Source: a virus
Taxonomy: Duplodnaviria > Heunggongvirae > Uroviricota > Caudoviricetes
Direction: 5' to 3' (one strand)
IMG/VR virus record: IMGVR_UViG_2778261504_000002
Span: 1 to 16,850 of that record
DNA: 16,850 bases
A model generated the notes under the pieces. It saw only the letters and a list, made by a program, of their open reading frames with translations. It had not been told where the DNA came from and did no database searches. The translations under genes were made by a program, and so were the position numbers. Below are positions 1 to 15,524 of the stretch, piece after piece (within the stretch, counting starts at the first letter, position 1; each line of letters begins with the position of its first letter).

Positions 1-301
<301 letters not shown>

Positions 302-305
<4 letters not shown>

Positions 306-919: not shown

Positions 920-920
920 A

Positions 921-1478: not shown

Positions 1479-2050
1479 TGGATGACTCCTTTACGAAGCT
1501 GTTCGGCGATATCTTCGAGAACGCCATCAGAGAATGAACGGTCAAAATCGCCTTCCGGCGCATTGGCCATAAACTCAGTAGAGGTAAGAATCATCCGGGC
1601 AATATCAGCGGCGTTCTTCGCAGTATCATCAATAAAACCAGCTTCCCAGGCAGCCAGCATTCTGTTCGCCACAAAGTAAGCGCCCTCCTTGCGTGCTTCA
1701 GTCTTCACTTCAGGCAGAAAAGCATCGGTGGCTGGGGTTTCAGTAATATCATCTTCCCATTCGCTAAACTCCTCACGACAAAAGTCATTAAATTCCTTCT
1801 CAGATTGCTTAAGCGAGGAATTTTCAGCAGCCATCTTCGCGCATTTAGCCTCAAGGTTATCAATCGTGATTCCAGCAGAACGACACTCCCGCAACGCCGT
1901 TTCTAGTTTTGATTCAAGTTCACCGAACTTACGGACAAGATATTCATCGTTTGTTTCGTCAACCTTTAAATCACTTGGGATGCATTTACCTTTCAGAAAA
2001 CCATCCATCTCAATTAGTGTCATTTGTTTCATTTCTTCCCACTCCGCCAC
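1475..2050 (-). CDS. hypothetical protein
   Basis: 191-aa ORF in the same polarity, overlapping both neighbours. Acidic with a coiled-coil-like central region. Function unknown. Confidence 0.55.
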
Positions 2051-2193
2051 ATCGCATTCAGATATTTGTTGTCATTAACAGAACCGAAACTCTTTCTCTT
2101 AAGCAATTCCTCTCTCGATGGCATTGGCTTTGCGCGTTGGCGAATAATCATTTCTGCCGGAAGAATGCCGGGATTGTATGCAAGTCCTCTCAT
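2029..2193 (-). CDS. small hypothetical protein (start uncertain)
   Basis: Track ORF 2029..2343 overlaps the upstream gene in another frame. An internal ATG at 2193 is preceded by GAGGAA; an alternative ATG lies at 2211. About 55 aa. Confidence 0.3.
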
Positions 2194-2203
2194 GGTAAAT
2201 TCC

Positions 2204-2497
2204 TCAGTCATTACTGATAGCGCCATAGCGTGAGCGGTAATTACGCAGGCGCGGGTCAATTTCAGGGAAGTGGGTATATGTGGCTTTGCGGAATGGTCGG
2301 ATTGATGTCTGGTAAATTCGCTCGCGTTCTTCTTTCTCTGCAAGCCATATACAATGGCGAAATTCCTTTTCCTCTTTCGTTTCCTGCGGTAGCGACATTA
2401 TCCGATCGTAGTTTTTTCTGAATTTATCCAGCACCTCCGATACGGAATTGCCGGAACAGCGGCGCGCGTCATCCGCACCATACAGAGGCGCTGGCAT
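2204..2497 (-). CDS. hypothetical protein
   Basis: 97-aa ORF starting 16 nt downstream of the exonuclease stop with a GGAG-type ribosome-binding site. No recognisable domain. Confidence 0.5.
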
Positions 2498-2513
2498 GGT
2501 TTTCTCCTGTTGA

Positions 2514-3062
2514 TTATTTAGCTAACTTTTTCCAGATCGCTGAAACGTATTTGGCTTGGTGAATGGCATCATCAAGCGCGTTGTGGCGAGTTCCTTTGAA
2601 TGGCATATCTCGCTTAGGGTCTAATCCTATTACCCTCCCAAGTTCGACGATTGTTCTTACGTCGCGGTCATTCCACCACTGCCACGGAACTGGCTGCCCT
2701 GTCAGCGAATAACTGTTTCGGAGAATAACGCAGTCAAATGATGCTCCATTCCCCCAAACCTGAACGAATTTGTGGTTAGCGTTCTTTATGATGAATTCAG
2801 ATAACCATGAAAGAGCCGTTGAAAGCTCCTGAGTGTTGCTGGTTAGCGATTTTCTGGCTTCTTCACTCTGTTCCAGCCACCATAAAATCGTTGAAGCGTC
2901 AGGACGCGCCCGATATCGCATTGATGACTCAAGCGAGATATTTACCGAGAACTCTTCTCCTGTTTCTCCGGTATTCGGGTCAAAGAATACCGCCCCAATA
3001 GAAATAACTGGCGCATATGGCCCGTTGCCCATTGTTTCAAGGTCAACCATTAAGTGATTCAT
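2514..3062 (-). CDS. DnaQ-like (DEDDh) 3'-5' exonuclease
   Basis: 182-aa ORF with N-terminal MVDLETMG (Exo I DxE motif) and C-terminal HNALDDA (Exo III H-x4-D motif). Sits directly downstream of ssb in the recombination module. Confidence 0.75.
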   Translation of the reverse strand: MNHLMVDLETMGNGPYAPVISIGAVFFDPNTGETGEEFSVNISLESSMRYRARPDASTILWWLEQSEEARKSLTSNTQELSTALSWLSEFIIKNANHKFVQVWGNGASFDCVILRNSYSLTGQPVPWQWWNDRDVRTIVELGRVIGLDPKRDMPFKGTRHNALDDAIHQAKYVSAIWKKLAK

Positions 3063-3070
3063 GTAAGTCC

Positions 3071-3577
3071 TTAAATTGCGTGAATAGCGTGACGAGGGAA
3101 GGGGAGAGTTACTGGTGCAAAGGGTATATCGTCGTCAAAATCCATCGGAGGTTCGTTGTGTTGTGCTGGTGATGATTGCTGCTGTGGCTTCTGTGATTGC
3201 CTGCTGGCTGCTTGTTGTTTGCTGTCGCCAATTCCGCCAAGCATTTGCATCACGCCATTAATTCCGACATGAACCTCGGTTGTGTAACGGTCTTGCCCTG
3301 ACTGGTCTTTCCACTTTCTGGTTCTCAGCATTCCCTCGAAATAAATCTGATCACCTTTTTTCACATACTGCCCCACGACCTCAGCCAGTTTCCCGGATAT
3401 AGCAACACGATGCCATTCAGTCAATTCCTTTTGCTCGCCAGTATTTTTATCTCGCCATTGTTCTGACGTGGCTATTGTCAGGTTAGCGAACGCTGTACCT
3501 GATGGTGAGTATCGAACTTCCGGGTCTTGTCCTACCCGACCAAGGATAATCACCTTATTTACGCCTCTGCTTGCCAT
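3071..3577 (-). CDS. ssb: single-stranded DNA-binding protein
   Basis: N-terminal OB-fold sequence closely resembles E. coli SSB ([21 protein letters not shown]...TEWHRV), followed by a Q/S/P-rich linker and the acidic [10 protein letters not shown] tail. The ORF unusually continues 15 codons past DDDIPF. Confidence 0.9.
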
Positions 3578-4285
3578 TTATGCCGCCTGTTTTAGTTCGT
3601 TAACTCTGATGTTCATTACCTGAACGCATTTAGCCTGCGCCTCCTCATTGCCAGCCATTAATTGCCAGTCACGCTGATAACGCTCGATGAGTTTTTTCTT
3701 GTCAGTTTCTGTTGACGCATAATCGCTGAAGTCTTTCAGGATTTGTTCGCAGTCAACCGATGGAGATTTCTGGTTGGTATTTTCTGGTGATGGTTTGTTA
3801 TCTGATGCTGGTATTGCCCATCCCGGCAGCGATGGAGGGAGCCAGTAAAATCCTGTTCCATCCTTGAGTTTTGCCCTGTGCCATCCCTGCTTTTTATCGA
3901 GAGATGTTTGTGCGAAACCTTCCTCAAGGTTATACAGATACCGACCGATTCCCCACTGAACGGCAGCGCGCTTCATTGCACCGGAACGACCACCTTTGAC
4001 GGCTTCTACCTGCGTGTTTTCAGCAGCATCCCATTTGGTTACCCATTCGGAATCAATCTTTATTGATATGCCGCATTCAACGCCGCCGTTGTTGGGAATA
4101 TCGCGGTATTCATTGCGCCATCCTGCTTTGCCGCAAACATCGTCCAGGCGTTTCATGATTGCCCGGTTCGTTACATAAGCCAGCACCATAGCCCACACTT
4201 TGCCATCGCGTGTTTTACCGCTTTGCTGTATTCGCCATTCGATATCTTCAGGGCTGAATGGCTCATCGAATTTATTCAAATCCAT
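3578..4285 (-). CDS. single-strand annealing recombinase, Rad52/Sak-like
   Basis: 235-aa ORF immediately upstream of ssb and abutting it. The motif AMKRAAVQWGIGRYLY resembles the conserved Rad52-fold region. Start has a GAGGTG ribosome-binding site. Confidence 0.65.
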   Translation of the reverse strand: MDLNKFDEPFSPEDIEWRIQQSGKTRDGKVWAMVLAYVTNRAIMKRLDDVCGKAGWRNEYRDIPNNGGVECGISIKIDSEWVTKWDAAENTQVEAVKGGRSGAMKRAAVQWGIGRYLYNLEEGFAQTSLDKKQGWHRAKLKDGTGFYWLPPSLPGWAIPASDNKPSPENTNQKSPSVDCEQILKDFSDYASTETDKKKLIERYQRDWQLMAGNEEAQAKCVQVMNIRVNELKQAA

Positions 4286-4293
4286 AATTCACC

Positions 4294-4464
4294 TCAGAAT
4301 GGACACGGCCCAAGGAAATAACGCTGATTTAATACTTCAACTCGGGACAAATTAAGGCATACCCGCATTCCTTCGCGGTCGCCATTATGGCGATACCAGA
4401 GAGCTTTCTGCGTGTACATGCGTCTCTGTAACTTGCTCTCCTTCACTGTGGTTGCAAGTGACAT
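4294..4464 (-). CDS. small hypothetical ORF (56 aa)
   Basis: Hand-translated ORF below the track threshold (MSLATTVKESKLQRRMYTQ...), with AAGGAG 7 nt upstream of the ATG. Overlaps another small ORF (4385..4543) in a different frame, so at most one is likely fully real. Confidence 0.25.
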   Translation of the reverse strand: MSLATTVKESKLQRRMYTQKALWYRHNGDREGMRVCLNLSRVEVLNQRYFLGPCPF

Positions 4465-4543
4465 GAATATCTCCTTCGTTACCGATTAATTCTTTCATCT
4501 GACGAATGAATTCTTCGTCTGACCAGTTATCTGTAAAACTCAT
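4385..4543 (-). CDS. small hypothetical acidic ORF (52 aa)
   Basis: Hand-translated (MSFTDNWSDEEFIRQMKELIGNEGDIHV...). ATG overlaps the stop of the Kil-like ORF; ribosome-binding site is weak. Competes with 4294..4464. Confidence 0.25.
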   Translation of the reverse strand: MSFTDNWSDEEFIRQMKELIGNEGDIHVTCNHSEGEQVTETHVHAESSLVSP

Positions 4544-4692
4544 TTCCTGCGATACCACGGATGGTTGATAGCTGATTTCATCGCTTTATTTGCTTCAAGC
4601 CACATTTTTGAATCACCAATAAATCTGGCTATTACTGCTTTGTTCTGTGCAGCACGAAGCATCTGGTGATTGATGGCTATTTCATTGCGCAT
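4540..4692 (-). CDS. kil: Kil-like small protein (host division inhibitor family)
   Basis: Hand-translated 50-aa ORF MRNEIAINHQMLRAAQNKAVIARFIGDSKMWLEANKAMKSAINHPWYRRK. The FIGDxKM..EA core resembles lambda Kil as I recall it. GGAGG sits 5 nt upstream of the ATG. Position between cIII-like and the recombination genes matches lambda gene order. Confidence 0.45.
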   Translation of the reverse strand: MRNEIAINHQMLRAAQNKAVIARFIGDSKMWLEANKAMKSAINHPWYRRK

Positions 4693-4811
4693 AACGCCTC
4701 CAGTTGTTTCTTTGCTGCTCTGATTAATTGTTTAACTCGGCGTGATAATTCAGATTCGTGCGGGTAGAAAGCGGACATGACGCCGCTACCCGCGAGCTGA
4801 AAGTGCATCAT
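4677..4811 (-). CDS. cIII: cIII-like small protein (FtsH inhibitor family)
   Basis: Hand-translated 44-aa ORF MMHFQLAGSGVMSAFYPHESELSRRVKQLIRAAKKQLEALCAMK. The pattern AG..V....P.ES.L.R..R.L resembles lambda CIII (IAGWPVAGCPSESLLERITRKL). AAGGAG 6 nt upstream. The 79-aa track ORF 4677..4916 contains it, but its N-terminal part looks non-coding. Confidence 0.5.
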   Translation of the reverse strand: MMHFQLAGSGVMSAFYPHESELSRRVKQLIRAAKKQLEALCAMK

Positions 4812-4994
4812 GGGTAACTCCTTATATTTGATTGCATAACGAAAACGCCTCGAGTGAAGCGTTATTGGTATGCATATAAAAAAGCCCTCACACTGGAGGG
4901 CAAAGAAGATTTCCAATAATCAGAACAAGTCGGCTCCTGTTTAGTTACGAGCGACATTGCTCACATAGCAGACTCGCAAATCTGCTATAGGTGC

Positions 4995-5153
4995 TTATTC
5001 GCATCGCATGACAACATCAAATTTTTCGAGATTACTTTGTCGCAACAATCCTTCTTCTACGCGGTCAGCTTTTCTATAATTATCAAATTCGAAATGTTTA
5101 ATTACTTCTTTCGTTTCTCGCTCTATAACTTCAACAATGTATTTCTTATTCAT
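4995..5153 (-). CDS. small hypothetical ORF (about 52 aa)
   Basis: Hand-translated ORF (MNKKYIVEVIERETKEVIKHFEF...) whose ATG overlaps the stop of the upstream 98-aa gene (ATGA arrangement). AT-rich, below the track threshold. Confidence 0.3.
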   Translation of the reverse strand: MNKKYIVEVIERETKEVIKHFEFDNYRKADRVEEGLLRQSNLEKFDVVMRCE

Positions 5154-5449
5154 CATTCTTCCCCAAGAGCTTTTCTGATTGCTGCAAGACCTTTATTAAC
5201 AGCTCCATACCATTCTGGATATGTTGTCTTTGTTCTATTTTTGGTTTGCTTAAGTAATAACTGAAGTGCTTCGAGAAGGTCAGGTGCTGCCGCTATTAGA
5301 TTGGCATCTTCAATGCATTGAACTTCCTCACAGATTGCAATATACGAACGCCAGCCTGCGCCATTTTCAAGTGAGTCTGCCTGGATGATTTTAATCTCAT
5401 CGCCATCCATCATTATTTCCCACTTACCTTCAGTACCTTTAAATTCCAT
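5153..5449 (-). CDS. hypothetical protein
   Basis: 98-aa ORF in pL-operon polarity, immediately downstream of a terminator-like hairpin. No recognisable domain. Confidence 0.5.
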   Translation of the reverse strand: MEFKGTEGKWEIMMDGDEIKIIQADSLENGAGWRSYIAICEEVQCIEDANLIAAAPDLLEALQLLLKQTKNRTKTTYPEWYGAVNKGLAAIRKALGEE

Positions 5450-5470
5450 GTTAGCCTCTGTTGTTTATGC

Positions 5471-5496
5471 CAAAAATAAAGGCCGACTATTCGGCC
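5471..5496 (-). terminator. intrinsic terminator-like hairpin within the pL operon
   Basis: GGCCGA-N4-TCGGCC stem at 5481..5496, followed on the minus strand by TTTATTTTTG. The hairpin overlaps the stop codon of the 107-aa gene. A candidate N-suppressible terminator. Confidence 0.5.
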
Positions 5497-5810
5497 TTAT
5501 CTACATTCCTGAACCAAACGCAGATCGGACCGTCTTCTGTATCGTGAATCGAACCGACAAACCATCCTTCTCCATCTGGCATGCTTGGCTCCCATCCACT
5601 GATGTTTTGATTCCCATCTTCAAAATACGCGTCAATTACCGTTTGATTGTTGTCGTTTTCCATTTCAACAATTGATGATTCAATGCCATGCTGCTTGCAG
5701 AAAGATCTGAACTCATCAGCTGAAATTACCTCTCTATCCCCAAACAGGTTGGCGTATTCTGGGTGCGTCCAGTAGCCATCCTCGCTTCGCTCTACTACTA
5801 ATGCTTCCAT
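5487..5810 (-). CDS. hypothetical, strongly acidic protein
   Basis: 107-aa ORF with a GAGGTG ribosome-binding site. About 24 Asp/Glu against about 6 basic residues. No recognisable domain. Confidence 0.55.
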   Translation of the reverse strand: MEALVVERSEDGYWTHPEYANLFGDREVISADEFRSFCKQHGIESSIVEMENDNNQTVIDAYFEDGNQNISGWEPSMPDGEGWFVGSIHDTEDGPICVWFRNVDKAE

Positions 5811-5990
5811 ATCTCACCTCAAATAAGTGGTTTGCTGCCTAATTTCATTTTCTGGCGACCAACACAAGTCACACCCATTTCACTGCGTGGCTTGCTGTAG
5901 TAAAGATTGTGCCTGTCTTTTAACCACATCAGGCTCGGTGGTTCTCGTGTACCCCTACAGCGAGAAAAATAGTAAAATCCTCTCACCCCC

Positions 5991-6353
5991 TTATTTTATC
6001 AGGGGGATATCTCCTTCAGTTCTGACCATTCGCCTTAATACTTTCCTTAAGTCGATGTAAAGTTGAAGGTCTCCATTTGCTGCGGCATCAGCCATTTTTT
6101 GCCTGACAAGCAGTAATGTTTCATACGGCTCAATAAGAATATCGTCATGAGTAATTAGGTGAAGCGTTGCCGCATCAACTATTCCTAGAGCTGCGCCAAG
6201 TATCAAAAATTCCCTGCTATTTTTGTCACATGAGGAGGTAAGCGTATTTAGCGCATACCTAATATTCTTTATAGCTGTTGTTAATGCTGCAATTTCTTCT
6301 ATGGCGTCTTCTTCAATGAGCTTTTTAAGCTCATATTTTTCTTCCTGACCCAT
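5991..6353 (-). CDS. hypothetical protein
   Basis: Track ORF 5991..6422 trimmed to the ATG at 6353 (MGQEEKYELKK...), which follows a GAGG ribosome-binding site and lies 2 nt downstream of the N stop. A hairpin CCCCCT-N9-AGGGGG overlaps its stop codon. Confidence 0.5.
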   Translation of the reverse strand: MGQEEKYELKKLIEEDAIEEIAALTTAIKNIRYALNTLTSSCDKNSREFLILGAALGIVDAATLHLITHDDILIEPYETLLLVRQKMADAAANGDLQLYIDLRKVLRRMVRTEGDIPLIK

Positions 6354-6355
6354 AA

Positions 6356-6739
6356 TTACCTCGCCGTCAGTTGTTTTGATTTCCGGTAGCCTGCCGCGTA
6401 AATGGCTACGTTTGGAAGACATACACCAGTTTCTGGTTGCTTATGTCCAAACTCATTCGCGTACACAATGGCCGCTCGCTCCAGATTGCGTCTGTATTCT
6501 TTCTGTTGCCAGATCACGTCCTGTGCCATGAACTTAATTGGCTTAGCGTCTTCTATGCGCTCAGGCGTTTCGTGAGTACCTTTAGCCTGAATCTGCGCTC
6601 TGCTTAGAGTAGGGCGGTGTAATACTTCTGAACTTATTGCTTCTTCGCGGGCCAGTACGCCGTTAGCTAATGCCTTTGCCTTTAAACGCTCACGACGACG
6701 AGAACGTGAATTGCCTTTGAACTGAGTTCTGCGTGTCAT
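6356..6739 (-). CDS. N: N-type transcription antitermination protein (P22 gp24 family)
   Basis: Track ORF 6356..6841 trimmed to the ATG at 6739, preceded by AGGAGG. The N-terminus has an arginine-rich motif (TRRTQFKGNSRSRRRERLKAKA). The C-terminus LPNVAIYAAGYRKSKQLTAR closely matches the end of P22 gp24 (LLPGVALYAAGHRKSKQITAR) as I recall it. Confidence 0.75.
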   Translation of the reverse strand: MTRRTQFKGNSRSRRRERLKAKALANGVLAREEAISSEVLHRPTLSRAQIQAKGTHETPERIEDAKPIKFMAQDVIWQQKEYRRNLERAAIVYANEFGHKQPETGVCLPNVAIYAAGYRKSKQLTAR

Positions 6740-6868
6740 ATAGACCTCCTGATGAACTTTGGTGGTGAATACAGCCGGGCGACTAACTCCGGTCGCGTAA
6801 TCATTGCAAAGCGCCTCCGCCGAGAAGGTTAGCTTCTGCATTCACCCCAAAGTTCACTTTGGTTATTG

Positions 6869-6883
6869 CGCTTTGTCAGCGCC
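6869..6883 (-). promoter_or_regulatory. nutL boxB hairpin (P22-type)
   Basis: Minus strand reads GCGCTGACAAAGCGC, a 5-bp stem with a GACAA loop, between pL and N. A convincing boxA was not found. Confidence 0.6.
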
Positions 6884-6950
6884 GTAGATTCATATTCGAA
6901 TCGTTGTATATTCACCGCCCTGGTGAGTAGTGCGTCCTGCTGATGGGTGA

Positions 6951-6998
6951 ACTTTATCGGAATGATAAATTAATGGCAATAGCAAAATGATAAATTCT
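6951..6998 (-). promoter_or_regulatory. pL promoter with OL operator repeats
   Basis: Minus strand reads TTGCCA-17 nt-TAAAGT (-35 at 6974..6979, -10 at 6951..6956). The 10-mer ATGATAAATT occurs at 6962..6971 and 6987..6996 and again in the cI-cro intergenic region. Confidence 0.55.
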
Positions 6999-7170
6999 CT
7001 TGGTTTTCAAATATCGTATTGATTCTTATGGTGTTTTATTTTGTTGTAGGAATTCGACAGGATAAATAAAGAGATTTGAGGGAGATCTGGATTGCGTTGT
7101 TTAGCAAGTTGTATCTATTTATTTTTCAACAAATACAATTGGTTATGTGTTTTTAGGTGTGGGGATCGTG

Positions 7171-7200
7171 AGGCAAAGAAAACCCGGCGCTGAGGCCGGG
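7171..7200 (-). terminator. intrinsic terminator downstream of the TAC module
   Basis: CCCGGC-N6-GCCGGG hairpin at 7183..7200, followed on the minus strand by TTTTCTTTG. Lies 10 nt after the stop of the chaperone gene. Confidence 0.55.
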
Positions 7201-7209
7201 TGGGGAATT

Positions 7210-7614
7210 TCACTTATTACTGTTCGTTTCCATGGGATTGGCCAAGAAATCAAAATAAGGCAGAGTGAACCTACCAAGGTTTGACATGAGGATAATTTGC
7301 TCGGCATATGTTTTTATATAGGGATATGCCATATTGGGAGCAATGGACCTTACCTCATATGATTTTGCCATTTCATGAGAAAAATCATCTTCTGACCGGA
7401 AGTCAAAGTCGTATGTGATGTCCATCTCAAGCCTGCCTTCAATAGTTACGGAGGCAAAATATCTCACTCTAAATAGCTTTGAATCCTTCACATTAGTGTA
7501 AAGTTCATTATTTAGATTAACGGTTGTTTTTATGGCTTTTTTTGCTGTTGAATCGCCTTCTAGCCGTGTCATAACCAAGCGTTCAACTTTTTTGCTAATG
7601 AGTTCAATTTTCAT
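7210..7614 (-). CDS. SecB-like chaperone of a toxin-antitoxin-chaperone (TAC) system
   Basis: 134-aa ORF whose start overlaps the antitoxin stop (ATGA). C-terminal region IAPNMAYPYIKTYAEQIILMSNLGRFTLPYFDF resembles SecB ([25 protein letters not shown]) and the M. tuberculosis TAC chaperone Rv1957 (YPYIREYVYDLTGRLALPPL). AT-rich compared with flanking phage DNA. Similarity judged from memory. Confidence 0.6.
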   Translation of the reverse strand: MKIELISKKVERLVMTRLEGDSTAKKAIKTTVNLNNELYTNVKDSKLFRVRYFASVTIEGRLEMDITYDFDFRSEDDFSHEMAKSYEVRSIAPNMAYPYIKTYAEQIILMSNLGRFTLPYFDFLANPMETNSNK

Positions 7615-8267
7615 GGTAATAATAAGTAATTTCCGTCAGAAGTCATTTCGTCATTCAGGTTGCTAGCCGCTGTGAAACTTGATGACAAGTTACTTATCAA
7701 AGAAAAAACATTCCGTTTTTCTTTGCATTTGCCATTACCCCTTACTGCGCTGAACAACATTTTTGAAAAGTAAGATTCTGTAGCCTTTTCAGCGAAATAA
7801 GCAGAAGGTGATGTGACGGCTGACTCACACCGAGCAATGACGCTAGTCATGGCTGTTTCTTCTTCCTCTGCGTCAACTAGGCTCCATTCAATTGCGCTCA
7901 TATCTTGAATTAAGATATCTGCAGGAATTCCAAGTCCGTCATGTAGTCTACGGATCATTGAAAGACTTAATGGACGCTTACGATTTAAGACCTCAGATAC
8001 TTTAGATGCTGAGCCAATGTATTGTTTCATATCGGCATAAGAGAGGCCTTGTTGATCCATACGGAACTTGATTGCTTCTATGGGATCTGGCTTGTCCATA
8101 GGGAACTCGCGTGACTCATAGTGCTCGATAAGCAAGCCTAGTAGTTCAAACTCATCAAAATCTTCAGTTCCAGGTTGTAAATCACTAGACGCAAGTTCAA
8201 TGAGCCTTTCCATAGCTGCAGCATGCTCTTCACTATTTTTAATGATGCGCCAGCTAGTTCGATTCAT
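7611..8267 (-). CDS. higA: HigA-like HTH antitoxin with a roughly 95-aa C-terminal extension
   Basis: Residues about 60-125 (IKFRMDQQGLSYADMKQYIGSASKVSEVLNRKRPLSLSMIRRLHDGLGIPADIL) resemble E. coli HigA. The ORF continues about 95 aa beyond the point where canonical HigA ends. Start overlaps the toxin stop. Confidence 0.7.
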   Translation of the reverse strand: MNRTSWRIIKNSEEHAAAMERLIELASSDLQPGTEDFDEFELLGLLIEHYESREFPMDKPDPIEAIKFRMDQQGLSYADMKQYIGSASKVSEVLNRKRPLSLSMIRRLHDGLGIPADILIQDMSAIEWSLVDAEEEETAMTSVIARCESAVTSPSAYFAEKATESYFSKMLFSAVRGNGKCKEKRNVFSLISNLSSSFTAASNLNDEMTSDGNYLLLP

Positions 8268-8551
8268 TTAAGCCTCCACTTGTCGTACTCTGCATGAGTT
8301 CCAACTCTTTCAACTATGACCATTCCTGCCTGGTAAACAACTTGGACAACGAGCCGATAGTTATTGCCTTTTATATTAAAAATTACCCTGTTGTTAGGAA
8401 GGAAGTCGGCAGAATTAAATCTATTCCGTATGTCTTGAGTCGTTTTCCAGTTTTCTCTTATCACTTCATCATACCAAGAGTCTAAAGCCCCCTTGGCCTG
8501 ATTGTGCTTCCGGCTAAAACTGTGAAGCTTCTCTACGTTTAAGACCTTCAT
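8264..8551 (-). CDS. higB: HigB-like toxin (RelE/ParE-fold mRNA interferase)
   Basis: 95-aa ORF. C-terminal RVIFNIKGNNYRLVVQVVYQAGMVIVERVGTHAEYDKW aligns with E. coli HigB (HYVFNVGGNELRVVAMVFFESQKCYIREVMTHKEYD) as I recall it. Toxin-first order and tight coupling to the antitoxin. Confidence 0.75.
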   Translation of the reverse strand: MKVLNVEKLHSFSRKHNQAKGALDSWYDEVIRENWKTTQDIRNRFNSADFLPNNRVIFNIKGNNYRLVVQVVYQAGMVIVERVGTHAEYDKWRLK

Positions 8552-8563
8552 AATCCGATTTTG

Positions 8564-8605
8564 TTCCCTCTTTGGGAATTATAGATTCATTTCCCATAAA
8601 GGGAA
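8564..8605 (-). promoter_or_regulatory. TAC promoter with paired inverted-repeat operators
   Basis: Perfect TATAAT on the minus strand (plus 8578..8583), flanked by two copies of TTCCC-N5-GGGAA (8564..8578 and 8591..8605), within 60 nt upstream of the higB ATG. The proximal repeat also covers the AGAGGGAA ribosome-binding site. Confidence 0.45.
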
Positions 8606-8687
8606 TCTGTATTTTTATCCAGAAATGCTATGTACATCACCCAAACGTCTCTTCAGGCCACTGGTTACCAGCTATGTGACGATGAAG

Positions 8688-9392
8688 TCACGAACTTTTC
8701 AGCCACTCCCTTGCCTCGATGTCATCCAGATGGCGAGATTGCTTCAGAATACCAGCCACATACTCCACCTTTGCTACTTGATGATAAGGCAACGTTATTG
8801 GCCTGTGGTCCTGGTTGATGCTTGTAAATTGGTATTCTCCGTCTCTGTCATAGCCAAGAACTTTGATCATGTTGTGTCCTTCAACAGTTCTGACAAACAC
8901 CTCATCACCCGGGAATACTTTGGTGTTAGGCTCAATGAGTACATATTCTCCTGATTTTATTCTGGGCCACATGCTGTCTCCTTTCACACGAAGACCAAAG
9001 GCATCTGGATCATCGCTATAAATTTTGAGCCACCCATCGCGCTCTTCGGTCATCTCGATGGCACCATCAACACCAAGAATTGCCTCACCAACCACGCGCA
9101 CTAACCCTTTTCTTACCTGACCGACAAAAGTTAAAGAATCTGAGCATGATGCAATTGGTGTTACATCATGTACCAAATCAAGCCACCCATTAGGTAACCC
9201 AAGCGCGGCTTCAAATTTTCTTGCTAGTTTATCCCCTATGTTTCGAGTGCTTTTTTCACCGGAGACTTGCGTGAGTTGAGAAGGGCTAACCCCAAGCTTA
9301 TCGGCAAAGCTTGCATTAGTGTTACCCGCGATTTTTTTATGCTCATCTAGCAAAAACGCCAGATTCGATTTGCGAATATCTTTGTTTTCCAT
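8688..9392 (-). CDS. cI: CI-like prophage repressor (HTH plus S24 LexA-like peptidase domain)
   Basis: 234-aa ORF transcribed away from cro. N-terminal HTH (NASFADKLGVSPSQLTQV) and a C-terminal region with the GDSMWP Ser-protease motif and a downstream Lys, as in autocleaving repressors. Sequence is unlike lambda, 434 or P22 repressors as far as I recall. Confidence 0.85.
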   Translation of the reverse strand: MENKDIRKSNLAFLLDEHKKIAGNTNASFADKLGVSPSQLTQVSGEKSTRNIGDKLARKFEAALGLPNGWLDLVHDVTPIASCSDSLTFVGQVRKGLVRVVGEAILGVDGAIEMTEERDGWLKIYSDDPDAFGLRVKGDSMWPRIKSGEYVLIEPNTKVFPGDEVFVRTVEGHNMIKVLGYDRDGEYQFTSINQDHRPITLPYHQVAKVEYVAGILKQSRHLDDIEAREWLKSS

Positions 9393-9419
9393 CTCACAAT
9401 TTTCCCTCTATTTAGCAAA

Positions 9420-9500
9420 TGGATAAATACGCAATATGATAAATTTACATTGCGGATGATTTATCAAAATGGTAAAGTTGTTCTGTGTGATAAACGGAGG
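9420..9500. promoter_or_regulatory. OR operator region with pR (and presumably pRM)
   Basis: Plus strand reads TTGCGG-17 nt-TAAAGT (-35 at 9450..9455, -10 at 9473..9478) upstream of cro. Operator-like repeats ATGATAAATT (9436..9445), ATGATTTATCA (9456..9466) and TGATAAAC (9488..9495). Architecture mirrors pL. Confidence 0.5.
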
Positions 9501-9505
9501 CACTA

Positions 9506-9739
9506 ATGAGTAATGAACTACTACGCTGGCGAAAAGAGGCTTCTAGTGAGGAATGGAAGCGACTCGCCGCATTAGCGAAAACTTCAGTTGGCTATCTTGA
9601 CCAGATTGCATATGGATTTCGAAGAGCTTCCCCTGATAAAGCGAATGCAATCGAAGAAGCTACTCGTAATTTCACGGGTTATAAACCTGTGAAAAAGGAA
9701 AACCTAGTGTTCGTATCGCGTAGAGCATCGGCTGCATAA
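9506..9739 (+). CDS. cro: Cro-like HTH regulator
   Basis: 77-aa ORF transcribed away from cI, with a GGAGG ribosome-binding site. First gene of the rightward operon. Family assignment is by position and size rather than strong sequence recall. Confidence 0.6.
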   Translation: MSNELLRWRKEASSEEWKRLAALAKTSVGYLDQIAYGFRRASPDKANAIEEATRNFTGYKPVKKENLVFVSRRASAA

Positions 9740-9777
9740 GTAACACCGCTATTTTCACAATGGACATTCGTCCTACG

Positions 9778-9792
9778 TCGCTGACAAAGCGA
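9778..9792 (+). promoter_or_regulatory. nutR boxB-like hairpin
   Basis: TCGCTGACAAAGCGA: 5-bp stem with the same GACAA loop as the nutL boxB. Located between cro and cII. Confidence 0.5.
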
Positions 9793-9877
9793 GTCCCAAT
9801 ATATCTGACCAACTAAGGCCACATGCGTTTCCACGCATACCTTTCAACTAACTATTCACTATTGGAAATCTTAAGAA

Positions 9878-10177
9878 ATGGAACAAACAAGTTACAGCAA
9901 ACTATCACAGCGAGAAATTGATCGCGCTGAAACTGATTTACTCATCAACCTGTCAACGCTTACCCAGCGCGGTCTGGCAAAGATGATTGGCTGTCATGAA
10001 TCGAAGATAAGCAGAACGGACTGGAGATTTATTGCTTCGGTCTTGTGTGCTTTCGGAATGGCATCAGACATCAGTCCGATTAGCAGAGCTTTTAAGTATG
10101 CGCTTGATGGACTCACCAATAAAAAACGCCCGGTGTGCAAGACCGAGCGTTCTGAACAAATCCAGATGGAATTCTGA
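9878..10177 (+). CDS. cII: CII transcriptional activator
   Basis: C-terminus LTNKKRPVCKTERSEQIQMEF matches lambda CII (ILTNKKRPAATERSEQIQMEF). The HTH region differs from lambda. Confidence 0.9.
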   Translation: MEQTSYSKLSQREIDRAETDLLINLSTLTQRGLAKMIGCHESKISRTDWRFIASVLCAFGMASDISPISRAFKYALDGLTNKKRPVCKTERSEQIQMEF

Positions 10178-10199
10178 GGGAATTACTGGATCAATCCAC
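10119..10199 (-). ncRNA. oop: oop-like antisense RNA
   Basis: The region over the cII 3' end and the cII-O junction matches lambda oop as I recall it. On the minus strand it ends in a hairpin (CGCTCGG...CCGGGCG) plus TTTTTTAT. Confidence 0.45.
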
Positions 10200-10209
10200 A
10201 GGAGTCATT

Positions 10210-11148
10210 ATGACAAATACAGCAAAAATACTCAACTTCGGCAGAGGTAACTTTGCCGAACAGGAGCGTAATGTGGCAGATCTCGATGATGGTTACGCCA
10301 GACTATCAAATATGCTGCTTGAGGCCTATTCAGGCGCAGATCTGACCAAGCGACAGTTTAAAGTGCTGCTTGCCATTCTGCGTAAAACCTATGGGTGGAA
10401 TAAACCAATGGACAGAATCACCGATTCTCAACTTAGCGAGATTACAAAGTTACCTGTCAAACGGTGCAATGAAGCCAAGTTAGAACTCGTCAGAATGAAT
10501 ATTATCAAGCAGCAAGGCGGCATGTTTGGACCAAATAAAAACATCTCAGAATGGTGCATCCCTCAAAACGAGGGAGGTTCCCCTAAAATGAGGGACATCC
10601 CTCAAAACGAGGGAAAATCCCCTAAAACGAGGGATAAAACATCCCTCAAATTAGGGGATTGCTATCCCTCAAAACAGGGGGACACAAAAGACACTATTAC
10701 AAAAGAAAAAAGAAAAGATTATTCGTCCGAGAATTCTGGCGAATCCTCTGACCAGCCAGAAAACGATCTTTCTGTGGTTAAACCGGATGCTGCAATTCAG
10801 AGCGGCAGCAAGTGGGGAACAGCAGAAGACCTGACCGCCGCAGAGTGGATGTTTGACATGGTGAAGACCATCGCACCATCAGCCAGAAAACCGAATTTTG
10901 CAGGGTGGGCTAACGATATCCGCCTGATGCGTGAACGTGACGGACGTAACCACCGCGATATGTGTGTGCTTTTCCGCTGGGCCTGCCAGGACAACTTCTG
11001 GTCCGGTAACGTGCTGAGTCCGGCCAAACTCCGCGACAAGTGGACCCAGCTCGAAATCAACCGTAACAAGCAACAGGCAGCCGTGACAGCCAGCAAACCA
11101 AAACTCGACCTGACAAACACAGACTGGATTTACGGGGTGGATCTATGA
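10210..11148 (+). CDS. O: replication initiator O
   Basis: Near-identical to lambda O along its length (MTNTAKILNFGRGNFA...TNTDWIYGVDL), with an extra 13 aa (GGSPKMRDIPQNE) in the iteron-encoded segment. Confidence 0.95.
   Translation: MTNTAKILNFGRGNFAEQERNVADLDDGYARLSNMLLEAYSGADLTKRQFKVLLAILRKTYGWNKPMDRITDSQLSEITKLPVKRCNEAKLELVRMNIIKQQGGMFGPNKNISEWCIPQNEGGSPKMRDIPQNEGKSPKTRDKTSLKLGDCYPSKQGDTKDTITKEKRKDYSSENSGESSDQPENDLSVVKPDAAIQSGSKWGTAEDLTAAEWMFDMVKTIAPSARKPNFAGWANDIRLMRERDGRNHRDMCVLFRWACQDNFWSGNVLSPAKLRDKWTQLEINRNKQQAAVTASKPKLDLTNTDWIYGVDL
10559..10682 (+). repeat. ori-lambda iterons (six copies) with adjacent AT-rich region
   Basis: Six tandem roughly 18-19 bp repeats of the TCCCTCAAAACGAGGGA type inside O, followed by the AT-rich stretch at 10683..10720. 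Canonical lambda has four as I recall. Confidence 0.85.
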
Positions 11149-11846
11149 AAAACATCGCCGCACAGATGGTTAACTTTGACCGTGAGCAGATGCGTCGGAT
11201 CGCCAACAACATGCCGGAACAGTACGACGAAAAGCCTCAGGTACAGCAGGTAGCGCAGATCATCAACGGTGTGTTCAGCCAGTTACTGGCAACTTTCCCG
11301 GCGAGCCTGGCTAACCGTGACCAGAACGAACTGAACGAAATCCGCCGCCAGTGGGTTCTGGCTTTCCGGGAAAACGGGATCACCACAATGGAACAGGTTA
11401 ACGCAGGAATGCGCGTAGCCCGTCGGCAGAATCGACCATTTCTGCCATCACCCGGGCAGTTTGTTGCATGGTGCCGGGAAGAAGCATCCGTTATCGCCGG
11501 ACTGCCAAACGTCAGCGAGCTGGTTGATATGGTTTACGAGTATTGCCGGAAGCGAGGCCTGTATCCGGATGCGGAGTCTTATCCGTGGAAATCAAACGCG
11601 CACTACTGGCTGGTTACCAACCTGTATCAGAACATGCGGGCCAATGCGCTTACTGATGCGGAATTACGCCGTAAGGCCGCAGATGAGCTTGTCCATATGA
11701 CTGCGAGAATTAACCGTGGTGAGGCGATCCCTGAACCAGTAAAACAACTTCCTGTCATGGGCGGTAGACCTCTAAATCGTGCACAGGCTCTGGCGAAGAT
11801 CGCAGAACTCAAAGCTAAGTTCGGACTGAAAGGAGCAAGTGTATGA
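11145..11846 (+). CDS. P: replication protein P (DnaB helicase loader)
   Basis: Essentially identical to lambda P (MKNIAAQMVNFDREQMRRIANNMPEQYDEK...KFGLKGASV). Start overlaps the O stop. Confidence 0.95.
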   Translation: MKNIAAQMVNFDREQMRRIANNMPEQYDEKPQVQQVAQIINGVFSQLLATFPASLANRDQNELNEIRRQWVLAFRENGITTMEQVNAGMRVARRQNRPFLPSPGQFVAWCREEASVIAGLPNVSELVDMVYEYCRKRGLYPDAESYPWKSNAHYWLVTNLYQNMRANALTDAELRRKAADELVHMTARINRGEAIPEPVKQLPVMGGRPLNRAQALAKIAELKAKFGLKGASV

Positions 11847-12133
11847 CGGGCAAAGAGGCAATTATTCATTACCTGGGGACGCATAATAGCTTCTGTGCGC
11901 CGGACGTTGCCGCGCTAACAGGCGCAACAGTAACCAGCATAAATCAGGCCGCAGCTAAAATGGCACGGGCAGGTCTTCTGGTTATCGAAGGTAAGGTCTG
12001 GCGAACGGTGTATTACCGGTTTGCTACCAGGGAAGAACGGGAAGGAAAGGTGAGCACGAACCTGATTTTTAAGGAGTGTCGCCAGAGTGCCGCGATGAAA
12101 CGGGTATTGGCGGTATATGGAGTTAAAAGATGA
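11843..12133 (+). CDS. ren: Ren
   Basis: 96-aa ORF matching lambda Ren (MTGKEAIIHYLGTHNSFCAPD...). Start overlaps the P stop. Confidence 0.9.
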   Translation: MTGKEAIIHYLGTHNSFCAPDVAALTGATVTSINQAAAKMARAGLLVIEGKVWRTVYYRFATREEREGKVSTNLIFKECRQSAAMKRVLAVYGVKR

Positions 12134-12158
12134 CCATCTACATCACTGAGCTAATGAC

Positions 12159-12190
12159 AGGCCTGCTGGTAATCGCAGGCCTTTTTATTT
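12159..12190 (+). terminator. tR2-like intrinsic terminator
   Basis: Perfect 8-bp stem AGGCCTGC / GCAGGCCT with an 8-nt loop, followed by TTTTATTT. Lies directly downstream of ren, as in lambda. Confidence 0.75.
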
Positions 12191-12203
12191 GGGGGAGAGG
12201 GAA

Positions 12204-12506
12204 GTGAACGATAGCTACCGACAGTTTGAAAACTGGTGGTCAAAAGACAAAAGCCAGTTCACGGGAGACGATGAATTAAAAGAGTTTGCCTGGGTGATAT
12301 GGCAGGCATCGCGCTCTGCTATTGAACTGGATATCGACTGGCCCGAATCGAATGACGACTTTTGGAAAGATGGTGAAGAAGGTGCTTATGCGATGGGTTA
12401 TGAGGATGGGCGTGACAAAACGGTAATTGCAGTAATGAAAGCTATCAGAGCCGCTGGAATTAAAGAGAAGAATTTCGATGAAGCAAACAATATTCCTCCG
12501 AACTAA
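12204..12506 (+). CDS. hypothetical acidic protein
   Basis: Track ORF 12189..12506. Probable GTG start at 12204 preceded by GGGGGAGAGGGAA. Lies between tR2 and ninB, where lambda has no gene. Confidence 0.45.
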   Translation: MNDSYRQFENWWSKDKSQFTGDDELKEFAWVIWQASRSAIELDIDWPESNDDFWKDGEEGAYAMGYEDGRDKTVIAVMKAIRAAGIKEKNFDEANNIPPN

Positions 12507-12888
12507 GCAACAACAGCAAGCCGCAATCAACGCCATCCTCGCAACACCACTCGATAAAGACAAGCCAGTCACCATCCGCATTACTGACTACAAGCGCAAC
12601 CTTGACCAGAACGCAAAATTTCACGCGATGCTGGCGGATATCGCACGTCAGGTTCAATGGTGCGATAAGTGGTTAAAACCAGAACAATGGAAGGTTTTGT
12701 TGATTAGCGGTCATGCAGTGGCAACAAAGCAGGAAGCTGATGTTTTGCCCGGCCTTGAAGGCGAATACGTCAACATTCGCGAAAGTAGCGCGCAGATGAG
12801 TGTGAAGCGTATGGCAAGTCTGATTGAGTACACGACAGCATGGGCTATTGGTCAGGGCGTCAGATTTACCGACAGGAGGTACGAATGA
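12478..12888 (+). CDS. ninB: NinB (recombination protein)
   Basis: 136-aa ORF with the NinB pattern (AAINAIL...[33 protein letters not shown]), comparable to lambda NinB. Confidence 0.85.
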
Positions 12889-13061
12889 GACGACAGCGAC
12901 GAAGTATCACCGACATAATCTGTGAAAACTGCAAATACCTTCCAACGAAACGCTCCAGAAATAAACGCAAGCCAATCCCAAAAGAATCTGACGTAAAAAC
13001 CTTCAACTACACGGCTCACCTGTGGGATATCCGGTGGCTAAGACATCGTGCGAGGAAATGA
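12885..13061 (+). CDS. ninE: NinE
   Basis: Track ORF 12840..13061 trimmed to the ATG at 12885 ([27 protein letters not shown]...), near-identical to lambda NinE. ATGA overlap with ninB. Confidence 0.85.
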
Positions 13062-13063
13062 CA

Positions 13064-13465
13064 ATGCTTTTAATTCAACCTGGATTTGGACTTAGCATCA
13101 AAAAAGGCCACATGTTTGGCGAGAAAGAGTCACAACGAAAAATGGTGTCTATCCGGTTGCCATTTATCAGTATTTATTGGCTAAACAGGGAGGCAACAAA
13201 TTATTGGTATACATGCGCCAGAGCAGCATTTAACGACCCTGACTGGTTTGTGAAAAACCACCACGCAGTTCGTCAGGCAAAGAGAAAGGCCAATATGACA
13301 TACATGAAGGCGTATCAAAAAGCATGGAAAGAACACCGCGATCGATACCAACAAGACATGGAAAAGCTTGAATCAGAAAACATGGAATTAAGACGAAAGC
13401 TCGGTGAAGCAAAACGAGACATTGATGCTTACAAGCGACTTTTTAATGGTGAAAGCCATGCTTAG
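13064..13465 (+). CDS. hypothetical protein (start uncertain)
   Basis: Track ORF 13022..13465. ATG at 13064 has GAGGAA 7 nt upstream. The C-terminal part is coiled-coil-like. Lies between ninE and ninF, which abut each other in lambda. Confidence 0.4.
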   Translation: MLLIQPGFGLSIKKGHMFGEKESQRKMVSIRLPFISIYWLNREATNYWYTCARAAFNDPDWFVKNHHAVRQAKRKANMTYMKAYQKAWKEHRDRYQQDMEKLESENMELRRKLGEAKRDIDAYKRLFNGESHA

Positions 13466-13634
13466 CCCATCCCAATCCCTTCAATACCAGAAAGAAAGCG
13501 TCGAGCGAGCTTTAACGTGCGCTAACTGCGGTCAGAAGCTGCATGTGCTGGAAGTTCACGTGTGTGAGCACTGCTGCGCAGAACTGATGAGCGATCCGAA
13601 TAGCTCAATGTACGAGGAAGAAGACGATGAGTGA
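13458..13634 (+). CDS. ninF: NinF
   Basis: Track ORF 13404..13634 trimmed to MLSPSQSLQYQKESVERALTCANCGQKLHVLEVHVCEHCCAELMSDPNSSM..., which matches lambda NinF. Confidence 0.85.
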   Translation: MLSPSQSLQYQKESVERALTCANCGQKLHVLEVHVCEHCCAELMSDPNSSMYEEEDDE

Positions 13635-14136
13635 TGTTAAAGAAAAAGATATCCCCGGCTTTGAGGGTATATATAAAGTAACTGAAAATGGAGACATCAT
13701 TTCATGCCGTAAATCAAAAAAATTATCTCATGGCATTAAACCAGGAGGATATGCATTTGTCGGTCTGTATCCAGGTGGCGGGAAAAGACCATCATATAAA
13801 ATGGTTCACAGAATTGTTGCAGAAGTATTTATTGATAACCCAGATGGCAAACCGGAAGTTAATCACAAGGATGGAAATAAACTTAATAATAAAGTTGAAA
13901 ATCTTGAGTGGGTAACGCGAACAGAAAATGCGAAACATGGATTTGATTCCGGATTGCTTGTTCATGGGTTTAATCATCACTTCTGCAAACTAACGCCAGA
14001 ACAAGTGAAATCAATATATAAATCAAAAGGCAAATACAGAGATATAGCCAAAGAATTTGGTGTTTGTGCGCAGACAGTGTGCAACATAAAAAACAAATCA
14101 GCGTACCGACGTTTTTTGGAGGGGATTGATGTTTAG
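13627..14136 (+). CDS. HNH homing-type endonuclease
   Basis: 169-aa ORF with a NUMOD4-like N-terminus (GFEGIYKVTENGDIIS) and an HNH motif (VNHKDGNKLNNKVENLEWVTRTENAKHG). Markedly AT-rich codon usage relative to neighbours. Confidence 0.75.
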   Translation: MSDVKEKDIPGFEGIYKVTENGDIISCRKSKKLSHGIKPGGYAFVGLYPGGGKRPSYKMVHRIVAEVFIDNPDGKPEVNHKDGNKLNNKVENLEWVTRTENAKHGFDSGLLVHGFNHHFCKLTPEQVKSIYKSKGKYRDIAKEFGVCAQTVCNIKNKSAYRRFLEGIDV

Positions 14137-14404
14137 AAGCAAAAAATGGCTTCAGGCAGTCAGGGATATTGAATTTTGCGTTCTTTGCGGAAGATACGGA
14201 GTTCAGGCCGCTCATAGAAATGAAGGGAAGGGGGTTGGGATTAAAGTAGATGATTGCCTTACTGCTGCGCTATGTGTTGATTGTCATTCAAGAATTGATA
14301 ATGGGAGAGATATGAGCAGGGAAGAGCGAAGGGCTGAAATGGATCGGGCCATTGTGCTTACCCTTAAAAAATTGGTTAACAATGGGAGGGTGTTTGTCCA
14401 ATGA
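14126..14404 (+). CDS. DUF1364/YbcO-like Cys-rich protein (putative nuclease)
   Basis: 92-aa ORF with CVLCG...AAH...CVDCH..ID, similar in layout to prophage YbcO-type proteins. Sits directly upstream of rusA, as in DLP12-like nin regions. Confidence 0.55.
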   Translation: MMFRSKKWLQAVRDIEFCVLCGRYGVQAAHRNEGKGVGIKVDDCLTAALCVDCHSRIDNGRDMSREERRAEMDRAIVLTLKKLVNNGRVFVQ

Positions 14405-14763
14405 ACGAATATCAGTTTGTGCTTCCATACCCGCCGTCGGTGAATACCTACTGGCGAAGACGGGGAAGCCAATACTACATCAGCGATAAAGGCCAGAAAT
14501 ACCGAAAAGACGTTCAGCAAATCATCCGCCAACTTAAGTTAGACATTTTCACCAAATCACGACTCCGCATCAAAGTCATCGCAGACGCTCCAGACTCCCG
14601 CCGCCGCGACCTCGACAACATCCTGAAAGGTTTACTCGACTCACTTATCCACGCCGGATTTGCGGAAGACGACGAGCAATTCGATGACATTCGCGTAATT
14701 CGTGGTGTGAAAGTACCAGGCGGACGGCTTGGAATAAAAATCACCGAACTGGAGAACGTATGA
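14401..14763 (+). CDS. rusA: RusA Holliday-junction resolvase
   Basis: 120-aa ORF. LPYPPSVNTYWRRRG...DRRRRDLDNILKGLLDSL...GGRLGIKITE matches E. coli RusA motifs (LPWPPSNNRYY...DRRRRDLDN...GGRLELTITE). Confidence 0.9.
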   Translation: MNEYQFVLPYPPSVNTYWRRRGSQYYISDKGQKYRKDVQQIIRQLKLDIFTKSRLRIKVIADAPDSRRRDLDNILKGLLDSLIHAGFAEDDEQFDDIRVIRGVKVPGGRLGIKITELENV

Positions 14764-14948
14764 ACGCCACAATTCAAACGATACCAGAACTGCTTATACA
14801 GGCACGAGGCAATCAGACCGAAGTGGCGAGGATGCTTTCCTGCGCAAGAGGAACAGTGCTCAAGTACAACCGAGACAGAAAAGGCGAGCGTCACGTAATA
14901 GTTAACGGCGTCCTGATGGTCACGCCAGGCAAAAAGGGAAGACGATGA
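14760..14948 (+). CDS. ninH: NinH
   Basis: 62-aa ORF with GNQTEVARMLSCARGTVLKY...HVIVNGVLMV, matching lambda NinH (GNQTEVARRLKCSRGTVRKY...HAIVNDVLMV). Confidence 0.8.
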   Translation: MNATIQTIPELLIQARGNQTEVARMLSCARGTVLKYNRDRKGERHVIVNGVLMVTPGKKGRR

Positions 14949-15433: not shown

Positions 15434-15439
15434 AACGTG

Positions 15440-15468
15440 TTGACATCATTGAGCAAATGAGCAACACT
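15440..15468 (+). promoter_or_regulatory. candidate late promoter pR'
   Basis: Perfect TTGACA at 15440..15445, 7 nt after the Q stop. The -10 is not clear (AACACT or CACTAT candidates). Assigned mainly by position. Confidence 0.35.
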
Positions 15469-15478
15469 ATTCGCATAA

Positions 15479-15524
15479 GCTGCCGTTAGTGACTCTTAAG
15501 TTGCAACGGTGGCTTTTTTTATTT
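15479..15524 (+). terminator. tR'-like intrinsic terminator
   Basis: GCTGCCGTT...AACGGTGGC stem (two G-T wobbles, long loop) followed by TTTTTTT at 15514..15520. Sequence to its right resumes lambda-like identity. Confidence 0.5.

Follow-up and report, generated by a model that had tools for sequence, protein, structure and literature searches.

A prophage immunity region very probably of the Shiga-toxin phage H-19B type, with proposed 19-bp palindromic operators and probable HigBAC cargo

The operator and early-promoter regions of H-19B, a Shiga-toxin (Stx) lambdoid phage, are credited to Shi & Friedman 2001 in a review that assigns four operators to the right operator region (OR); for the operator sequences, Chen et al. 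2005 refer to Neely & Friedman 1998. A second described system, the HigBAC toxin-antitoxin-chaperone (TAC) of NT1F31, was characterised in 2024 in a lambdoid prophage, where it occupies the rexAB slot downstream of cI; its trigger is gpV, the major tail protein of lambda, and both its chaperone-dependent neutralisation and its anti-phage activity were established by experiment (Mets et al., bioRxiv 10.1101/2024.02.24.581848). Here, positions 6951..9500 of a 16,850-bp viral sequence (IMG/VR record IMGVR_UViG_2778261504_000002, positions 1 to 16,850; hereafter the window) are compared with these systems. A first-pass annotation had seen in this stretch a distinct immunity specificity, marked by a 10-mer common to the left operator region (OL) and OR. 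The stretch is very probably the immunity region of H-19B, with a lambda-type switch, 19-bp palindromes as operators and HigBAC as cargo. This reading is based on sequence identity with H-19B, motif statistics, a conservation footprint and domain assignments, from which actual binding, cooperativity, the repressor cleavage site, promoter start sites and transcription of the cassette are predicted.

Over positions 6300..9800 the window is 99.1–99.9% identical to H-19B (AF034975), BP-4795, ST2-8624, Stx2a_WGPS9 and many Stx1a-converting phages; 6951..9500 is 99.1% identical overall to H-19B, from which it shows essentially no difference. AF034975 contains exact copies of the cI protein, of OL, of the entire 113-nt stretch between cI and cro and of each of the six operator 19-mers described below; HigA and HigC are each at least one residue off the H-19B record. 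The gene order of H-19B is N-pL/OL-(three open reading frames, ORFs)-cI-OR-cro-cII-O-P, the three ORFs being unnamed in the H-19B and BP-4795 annotations. Sharing repressor, cro and operator sequences with H-19B, the window carries its immunity type. The specificity is distinct, as had been claimed, in that it differs from that of lambda, but the H-19B type was already known and residues 81-234 of its cI are 95% identical to those of 933W. Both the specificity and the operators are established knowledge, because the sequence, determined in 1998, is H-19B's own and the operators are the subject of the 2001 operator–early promoter paper. The present comparison adds little beyond this: it spells out a 19-bp palindrome model, backs it with a footprint from natural alleles and casts doubt on the operator register given in GenBank. 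As a whole, the window is a different mosaic prophage from H-19B, the best phage record covering only 52% of it. Many Shiga-toxin 1 prophages, and some Shiga-toxin 2 ones, are induced under the control of the H-19B-type switch; of 5,426 complete E. coli genomes, 216 carry the module made up of the N-terminal half of cI, OR and cro, which always lies in the chromosome and whose operators therefore matter for toxin release.

The early promoters and the operators assigned to the region are listed below; the operators, which have no strand, are scored as matches out of 16 to the dyad ATTTATCA-N3-TGATAAAT.

6951..6979, minus strand: promoter pL, with -35 TTGCCA (6979..6974), a 17-nt spacer and -10 TAAAGT (6956..6951); promoter scan, 9/12 matches.
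9450..9478, plus strand: promoter pR, with -35 TTGCGG (9450..9455), a 17-nt spacer and an extended -10, TGG-TAAAGT (9470..9478); read from the sequence.
6952..6970: OL1, CTTTATCGGAATGATAAAT, 14/16, its core TTTATC-N5-GATAAA matching 12/12; over the spacer and -10 of pL; holds the first 10-mer.
6977..6995: OL2, CAATAGCAAAATGATAAAT, 12/16, with a perfect right half-site; overlaps the -35 of pL, its centre 25 bp from that of OL1; holds the second 10-mer.
9410..9428: OR3, ATTTAGCAAATGGATAAAT, 14/16; nearest cI, 18 nt from its start codon.
9426..9444: OR2, AATACGCAATATGATAAAT, 12/16; of its two half-sites, the right one alone, TGATAAAT (9437..9444), is conserved; holds the third 10-mer.
9459..9477: OR1, ATTTATCAAAATGGTAAAG, 14/16; over the spacer and -10 of pR.
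9477..9495: candidate fourth OR site, GTTGTTCTGTGTGATAAAC, 11/16, a weak score; departs from the 17-bp core at 2 positions; sits where pR is expected to start, after its -10 and just ahead of the cro ribosome-binding site.

Exactly three copies of the 10-mer ATGATAAATT are present in the window, at the places first reported and always on the plus strand (6962..6971, 6987..6996 and 9436..9445), against a mean of 0.09 copies in dinucleotide-preserving shuffles, none of 200 of which reached three. Allowing one mismatch adds copies only at 2192 and 2788, a chance level. The motif frequency that had been named as a refuting test did not refute the observation beyond the window either: in the complete genome of BP-4795 (57,930 bp), which has the same immunity region, the 10-mer is found only at the three OL/OR positions, and palindromes with at most one mismatch are likewise confined to OL and OR. 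An alignment of the copies, all turned the same way, shows TGATAAAT to be what is conserved, as a half-site of the dyad ATTTATCA-N3-TGATAAAT; OL and OR together contain four perfect copies of the half-site TGATAAAT. If up to one mismatch is tolerated, the 17-bp core TTTATC-N5-GATAAA is met at three sites, all in OL/OR (6953..6969, free of mismatches, 9411..9427 and 9460..9476), where 0.07 would be expected, and the 19-bp form reaches 14/16 at OL1, OR3 and OR1 against an expectation of 0.015 sites. Palindrome-like sites at 5464, 5995 and 9900 were dismissed as chance-level.

It has to be asked whether the repeats play no part in repressor binding and reflect a chance likeness of A+T-rich promoters, or are left over from the duplication of a promoter. 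Both stretches that hold them are promoter regions rich in A+T, and TGATAAA by itself shows no significant enrichment in the window (8 copies where 3.7 are expected, a count that 12 of 200 shuffles reach); the exact 10-mer and the near-perfect 17–19-bp palindromes, however, lie far above chance and occur only at OL and OR in 57.9 kb, allelic substitutions avoid the sites (P = 1e-4), and the operators are, according to the review, the subject of the dedicated 2001 paper, so that the probability of this explanation is close to nil. The first-pass identification of the repeats as OL/OR operators of a lambdoid switch is borne out.

The footprint was drawn from E. coli chromosomal prophages of CFSAN018748, 2014C-3050 and Z1323CEC0010, which carry the same module at about 96–98% identity. 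All records in the phage collection that span the cI N-terminal domain, OR and cro are at least 99% identical, and matches in that collection at 95% identity or less are confined to the C-terminal, 933W-type half of cI; the 1,134 relatives of the cI N-terminal domain are too distant (about 56% identity or less) for operator footprinting. Among the four natural alleles 16 of the 113 cI-cro intergenic positions vary, and none of these falls within the 46 nt of the OR3 19-mer, the OR1 19-mer and the OR2 half-site (hypergeometric P = 1e-4). On the other side of the region OL2 is invariant, and OL1 varies only at its centre (6960) and its last base (6970). The right half of the fourth OR site, TGATAAAC, is invariant, and its left half is variable (TTGTTC, TTGCTC, TCGCTC).

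The same alleles bear on whether ATGATAAATT could itself be what the repressor recognises, whether as a direct repeat or as an element without a palindrome, a view that the restriction of its three exact copies to OL and OR and the direct-repeat arrangement of the OL pair, 25 bp apart, might suggest. In two alleles the OR copy becomes TTGATAAATC, altered in its first and last bases and with TGATAAAT kept, so the outer bases of the 10-mer are not essential; in one allele the OL1 copy reads ATGATAAACT. Moreover, the statistics most strongly favour three 19-bp palindromes, two of which, OR1 and OR3, lack the 10-mer, and S24-type repressors with one helix-turn-helix (HTH) per subunit are known from lambda, 434 and P22 to bind two-fold symmetric sites. 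Recognition of the 10-mer as such is accordingly very improbable. As aligned here, ATGATAAATT is one half-site, TGATAAAT, with one non-essential flanking base on each side, and not the operator unit; its initial description as the operator core holds for the half-site that it contains, but the unit is the 19-bp dyad.

The architecture reported for both promoters, TTGC(C/G)(A/G)-17 nt-TAAAGT with an operator copy in the spacer, was recovered: the pL spacer contains the reverse complement of ATGATAAATT and the pR spacer an inverted variant, ATGATTTATCA, the exact copy on the pR side lying 5 nt upstream of the -35. A consensus promoter scan missed pR because its -35 matches at only 3/6 positions; TG at 9470..9471 makes its -10 an extended one. 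Across the four alleles both pL hexamers are unchanged, as is the pR -10, and the pR -35 reads TTGCGG, TTGCAG or TTGCGT. In OL1 and OR1, which have the highest symmetry of all the sites, the promoter-proximal half-site, G(A/G)TAAA, provides the first four bases of the -10 TAAAGT and the other half-site fills the spacer; pL and pR look alike because OL1 and OR1 overlap their -10 hexamers. Several dyad operators over divergent early promoters, the arrangement of a lambdoid CI, are thus present, with OL1, OR1 and OR3 at 14/16 and OL1 and OR1 over the -10. This overlap implies repression by occlusion of RNA polymerase. CI dimers presumably bind the imperfect 19-bp palindromes, consensus ATTTATCA-N3-TGATAAAT, through their family-specific N-terminal HTH; on OL1 and OR1 they would cover the spacer and the first four -10 bases and so keep the polymerase from pL and pR. 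Cro, made from pR, would be the matching counter-repressor.

A different placement of the OR operators is found in the GenBank annotation of ST2-8624 (KU238070), which in window coordinates reads as follows.

9409..9425: oR3 of KU238070.
9432..9448: oR2 of KU238070, centred on the 10-mer.
9458..9474: oR1 of KU238070.

This block (window 9409..9474; KU238070 13585..13650; L007 3351..3416) would give OR the classical lambda layout, three 17-bp operators at 23–26 bp spacing. Such a spacing would permit pairwise cooperativity and put oR2 next to both -35 regions, and the annotation exists; the annotated 17-mers, however, share no single register (ATTTATCA begins at position 2 in oR1 and at position 5 in reversed oR2), have little internal dyad symmetry and end two bases short of the invariant 19-nt blocks. 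In addition to mirroring lambda's own annotation, from which it may have been placed by analogy, the layout has three sites against the four given in the literature. Taken together, these features make the classical layout unlikely here. Judged against the conserved dyads, from which it is offset by 1–2 nt at oR3 and oR1 and by 6 nt at oR2, the KU238070 annotation is probably out of register. A lambda-like OR2 at 9434..9452, its centre about 24 bp from that of OR1, was also considered and was rejected for want of fit to the palindrome.

Several observations weigh against the assignment of the region as an H-19B switch with 19-bp palindromic operators. Chance alone yields about 1.8 sites per window at 12/16, the score of OL2 and OR2, and 10.6 at 11/16, that of the fourth OR site; because such scores arise by chance, these three are placed by position and conservation only. 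Measured from centre to centre, neighbouring OR sites lie 16, 33 and 18 bp apart, which does not resemble the 23–24 bp of lambda, and OR2 and OR3 overlap by 3 bp; the ST2-8624 record places oR3, oR2 and oR1 in a different, lambda-like register, and the operator boundaries used here are those of a sequence model, not of DNase footprints. Between OR1 and OR3, no minus-strand pRM candidate combined acceptable hexamers and spacing with conservation among the alleles. Finally, the Pfam HTH_3 match to the cI N-terminal domain is sub-threshold (E = 0.007).

The spacing may also be looked at in another way. The OR sites pair up, abutting or overlapping (OR3/OR2 at 16 bp, OR1/fourth site at 18 bp), OR2 is conserved as a single half-site only, and the closest solved DNA-binding relative of the repressor is Rep of Salmonella phage SPC32H; for these reasons it is conceivable, albeit doubtful, that H-19B CI reads TGATAAAT half-sites as arrays with an uncommon geometry, without lambda-style pairwise cooperativity. 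In SPC32H Rep the DNA-binding domains are arranged in a non-canonical way, in 'trans'. Returning to the palindromic operators, we infer that the site at 9477..9495 would complete the four OR sites of the literature.

The regulatory genes that belong to the switch are the following.

8688..9392, minus strand: cI, 234 aa, with an H-19B-specific HTH N-terminal domain (residues 1-80) and a 933W-type linker and S24 domain (81-234).
9506..9739, plus strand: cro, 77 aa, specific to the H-19B type; H-19B/BP-4795 annotation, PHROG transcriptional repressor 4.4e-7.
6356..6841, minus strand: N antiterminator, the first gene of the pL operon; Pfam N_peptide 5.1e-16, PHROG anti-termination protein N-like 6.8e-40 and H-19B annotation; the coordinates are those of the longest ORF, and H-19B annotates a shorter start (127 aa).

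CI contains an S24 autoprotease domain (Pfam Peptidase_S24, 3.8e-16) whose Ser/Lys dyad consists of Ser140, in a GDSM motif, and Lys177. Residues 81-234 are those shared at 95% with 933W cI, whereas residues 1-80 have no similarity to it, the overall count being 146 identities over 234 aa; at the nucleotide level, identity to cI of 933W, Min27 and phi24B is about 96% over the 3' 454 nt, and the 5' part, OR and cro were found only in H-19B-type phages. Cro likewise has no similarity to 933W Cro. Because cI 81-234 is 933W-type while cI 1-80 and Cro are unrelated to 933W, the specificity module, as read from these comparisons, consists of the cI N-terminal domain and, with it, OL, OR and cro, and has been grafted to a C-terminal domain that is shared. 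A recombination junction in cI lies at 9141/9142, near codon 80. The 933W-type S24 C-terminal domain would confer dimerisation and cooperativity, and RecA-stimulated self-cleavage of CI, probably at Leu105-Gly106, the sole candidate cleavage dipeptide in the linker, would induce the prophage. Koudelka and co-workers are said to have found in 2004 that the 933W repressor is cleaved at Leu-Gly.

The repressor had been described as unlike those of lambda, 434 and P22, and at the level of sequence it is: BLASTP finds only 36% identity to lambda cI, over 45 aa around the catalytic serine, and a phmmer search of full cI against all PDB chains, in a copy for which the presence of each of these repressors was not separately confirmed, returned no chain named lambda, 434 or P22 repressor at E<=1. 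With a repressor whose sequence is unrelated by search, and operators that differ from the lambda annotation, the specificity is not that of lambda, 434 or P22. The fold class, on the other hand, is the same, 434 and lambda repressor chains appearing in a fold search of the N-terminal-domain model. An exhaustive representative search gave the 1,134 distant relatives of this domain, at about 56% identity or less except for fragments, whereas a word-indexed protein search with the N-terminal 96 aa returned three E. coli fragments only and no diverged relatives. A profile of the relatives matches SPC32H Rep (PDB 5d50; 1e-13) and TP901-1 CI (3e-7). An AlphaFold2 model built with their alignment has a predicted local distance difference test (pLDDT) score of 83, with helices at 26-33 and 37-44, and its best match is 5d50 (Foldseek template-modelling (TM) score 0.66), followed by the N-terminal domains of 434 repressor and lambda cI; a single-sequence AlphaFold prediction of full cI was unusable (pLDDT 38.6). 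In this model the cI N-terminal domain is a standard HTH, of the fold class of the 434 and lambda repressors. Fagerlund et al. 2022, whose data set includes BP-4795 cI, describe a CI 'Clade III' that is said to lack an HTH domain and to be about 60% identical to Clade IV. This clade might fit the present cI as set against 933W cI.

Between OL and cI lies a cassette of three genes, flanked by a candidate promoter and a terminator.

8264..8551, minus strand: higB, RelE-like toxin, 95 aa; Pfam HigB_toxin 4.5e-30, PADLOC PD-Lambda-2_A 2.5e-42.
7611..8267, minus strand: higA, antitoxin, 218 aa; PADLOC PD-Lambda-2_B 3.8e-50 (residues 5-127 only), Pfam HTH_3 3.6e-4.
7210..7614, minus strand: higC, putative SecB-like TAC chaperone, 134 aa; PADLOC PD-T4-9_C (a CmdC chaperone model) 3.2e-11, residues 1-129.
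8564..8605, minus strand: candidate higBAC promoter, with a perfect TATAAT (8583..8578) and palindromes TTCCC-N5-GGGAA at 8564..8578 and 8591..8605.
7182..7201, minus strand: intrinsic terminator just after higC and upstream of OL, 7 pairs (6 G-C) followed by TTTTCTTT; terminator scan.

The composition is probably that of a TAC: HigB belongs to the RelE/HigB toxin family, and HigA is an HTH antitoxin with a long C-terminal chaperone-addiction tail. As in the published NT1F31 HigA, which has 218 aa, F188, a chaperone-addiction tail at 122-218 and a Leu-Pro end, the tail carries W128, F158 and F188 in 30-aa steps and ends in Leu-Pro, and HigC has the N41, R49 and D71 of NT1F31 HigC (Mets et al., 10.1101/2024.02.24.581848); a Pfam search of HigC gave no match at all, SecB included. 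From these landmarks we infer that the cassette is the published prophage HigBAC defence system. The two exact TTCCC-N5-GGGAA palindromes, 27 bp apart, compare with an expectation of 0.015 (none of 2000 simulated sequences had two) and, by their position at the candidate higBAC promoter, are probably sites of HigA autoregulation; the promoter scan made no call at the TATAAT of 8583..8578.

The cassette sits, as had been stated, between OL and cI, but the accompanying description of it as lying in the repressor-controlled region is misleading. It is read in the direction of cI, appears to have its own promoter and is followed by a terminator before OL, so it is not under pL repression; pL itself fires away from it. 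To judge from this layout, higBAC is lysogen-side cargo within the immunity region and not a repressed gene set. The terminator at 7182..7201, which closes the leftward cI-cargo transcription unit and marks the left edge of the cargo slot, is kept in alleles with other cargo. The slot is swappable and has sharp junctions (7202..8634 in the window, 1646..2993 in L005, 2252..2993 in L006 and about 1440..2993 in L010); its content is HigBAC in the window, and CFSAN018748 has PDC-M24-like genes there, 2014C-3050 two small ORFs and Z1323CEC0010 PDC-M63-like genes. Kept around it in the allelic prophages are 53 nt after the cI stop (8635..8687) on one side and the terminator with about 185 bp up to OL2 on the other.

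Both flanking blocks show further features. Within 8635..8687 there is a short palindrome, CTGGTAACCAG in minus-strand reading, which has no T-run and for which the terminator scan was negative. The roughly 185 bp from OL2 to the terminator (6997..7180) are retained in all alleles despite their differing cargo, and no ORF is apparent in them. A block at 7055..7067 distinguishes two haplotypes, each with one operator-like half-site, GGATAAAT in the window and ATTTATCA in CFSAN018748 and 2014C-3050; this could be a distal weak OL site or a product of chance.

In comparison with known systems, the cassette resembles NT1F31 HigBAC in its rexAB slot downstream of cI and in the landmark residues of HigA and HigC, a likeness known from these landmarks only; for the HigC of the window, it is the PADLOC CmdC-chaperone model that matches and not Pfam SecB. 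The N-terminal domain of the repressor has its closest solved relative in SPC32H Rep (PDB 5d50; TM score 0.66, root-mean-square deviation 2.4 Å over 77 residues, 26% identity), with which the C-terminal region has no alignment; SPC32H Rep is not known to have an S24 autoprotease domain, and an antirepressor inactivates it. With the 933W repressor the relation is reversed, linker and C-terminal domain being nearly the same and the operators, Cro and the DNA-binding N-terminal domain without relation, and the cargo downstream of 933W cI consists of stk and other genes. From lambda the window is set apart by the absence of useful repressor sequence similarity, by its half-site, TGATAAAT, and by its OR spacing, with two clear OL sites and, according to the review, four OR sites; its cI also has a Shine-Dalgarno leader, whereas the lambda cI start is leaderless. 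Lambda and the window nevertheless have in common divergent cI and cro genes, multiple dyad operators over pL and pR, a repressor that joins an HTH to an S24 autoprotease and, between cI and OL, a cargo slot closed by a terminator, which in lambda holds rexAB.

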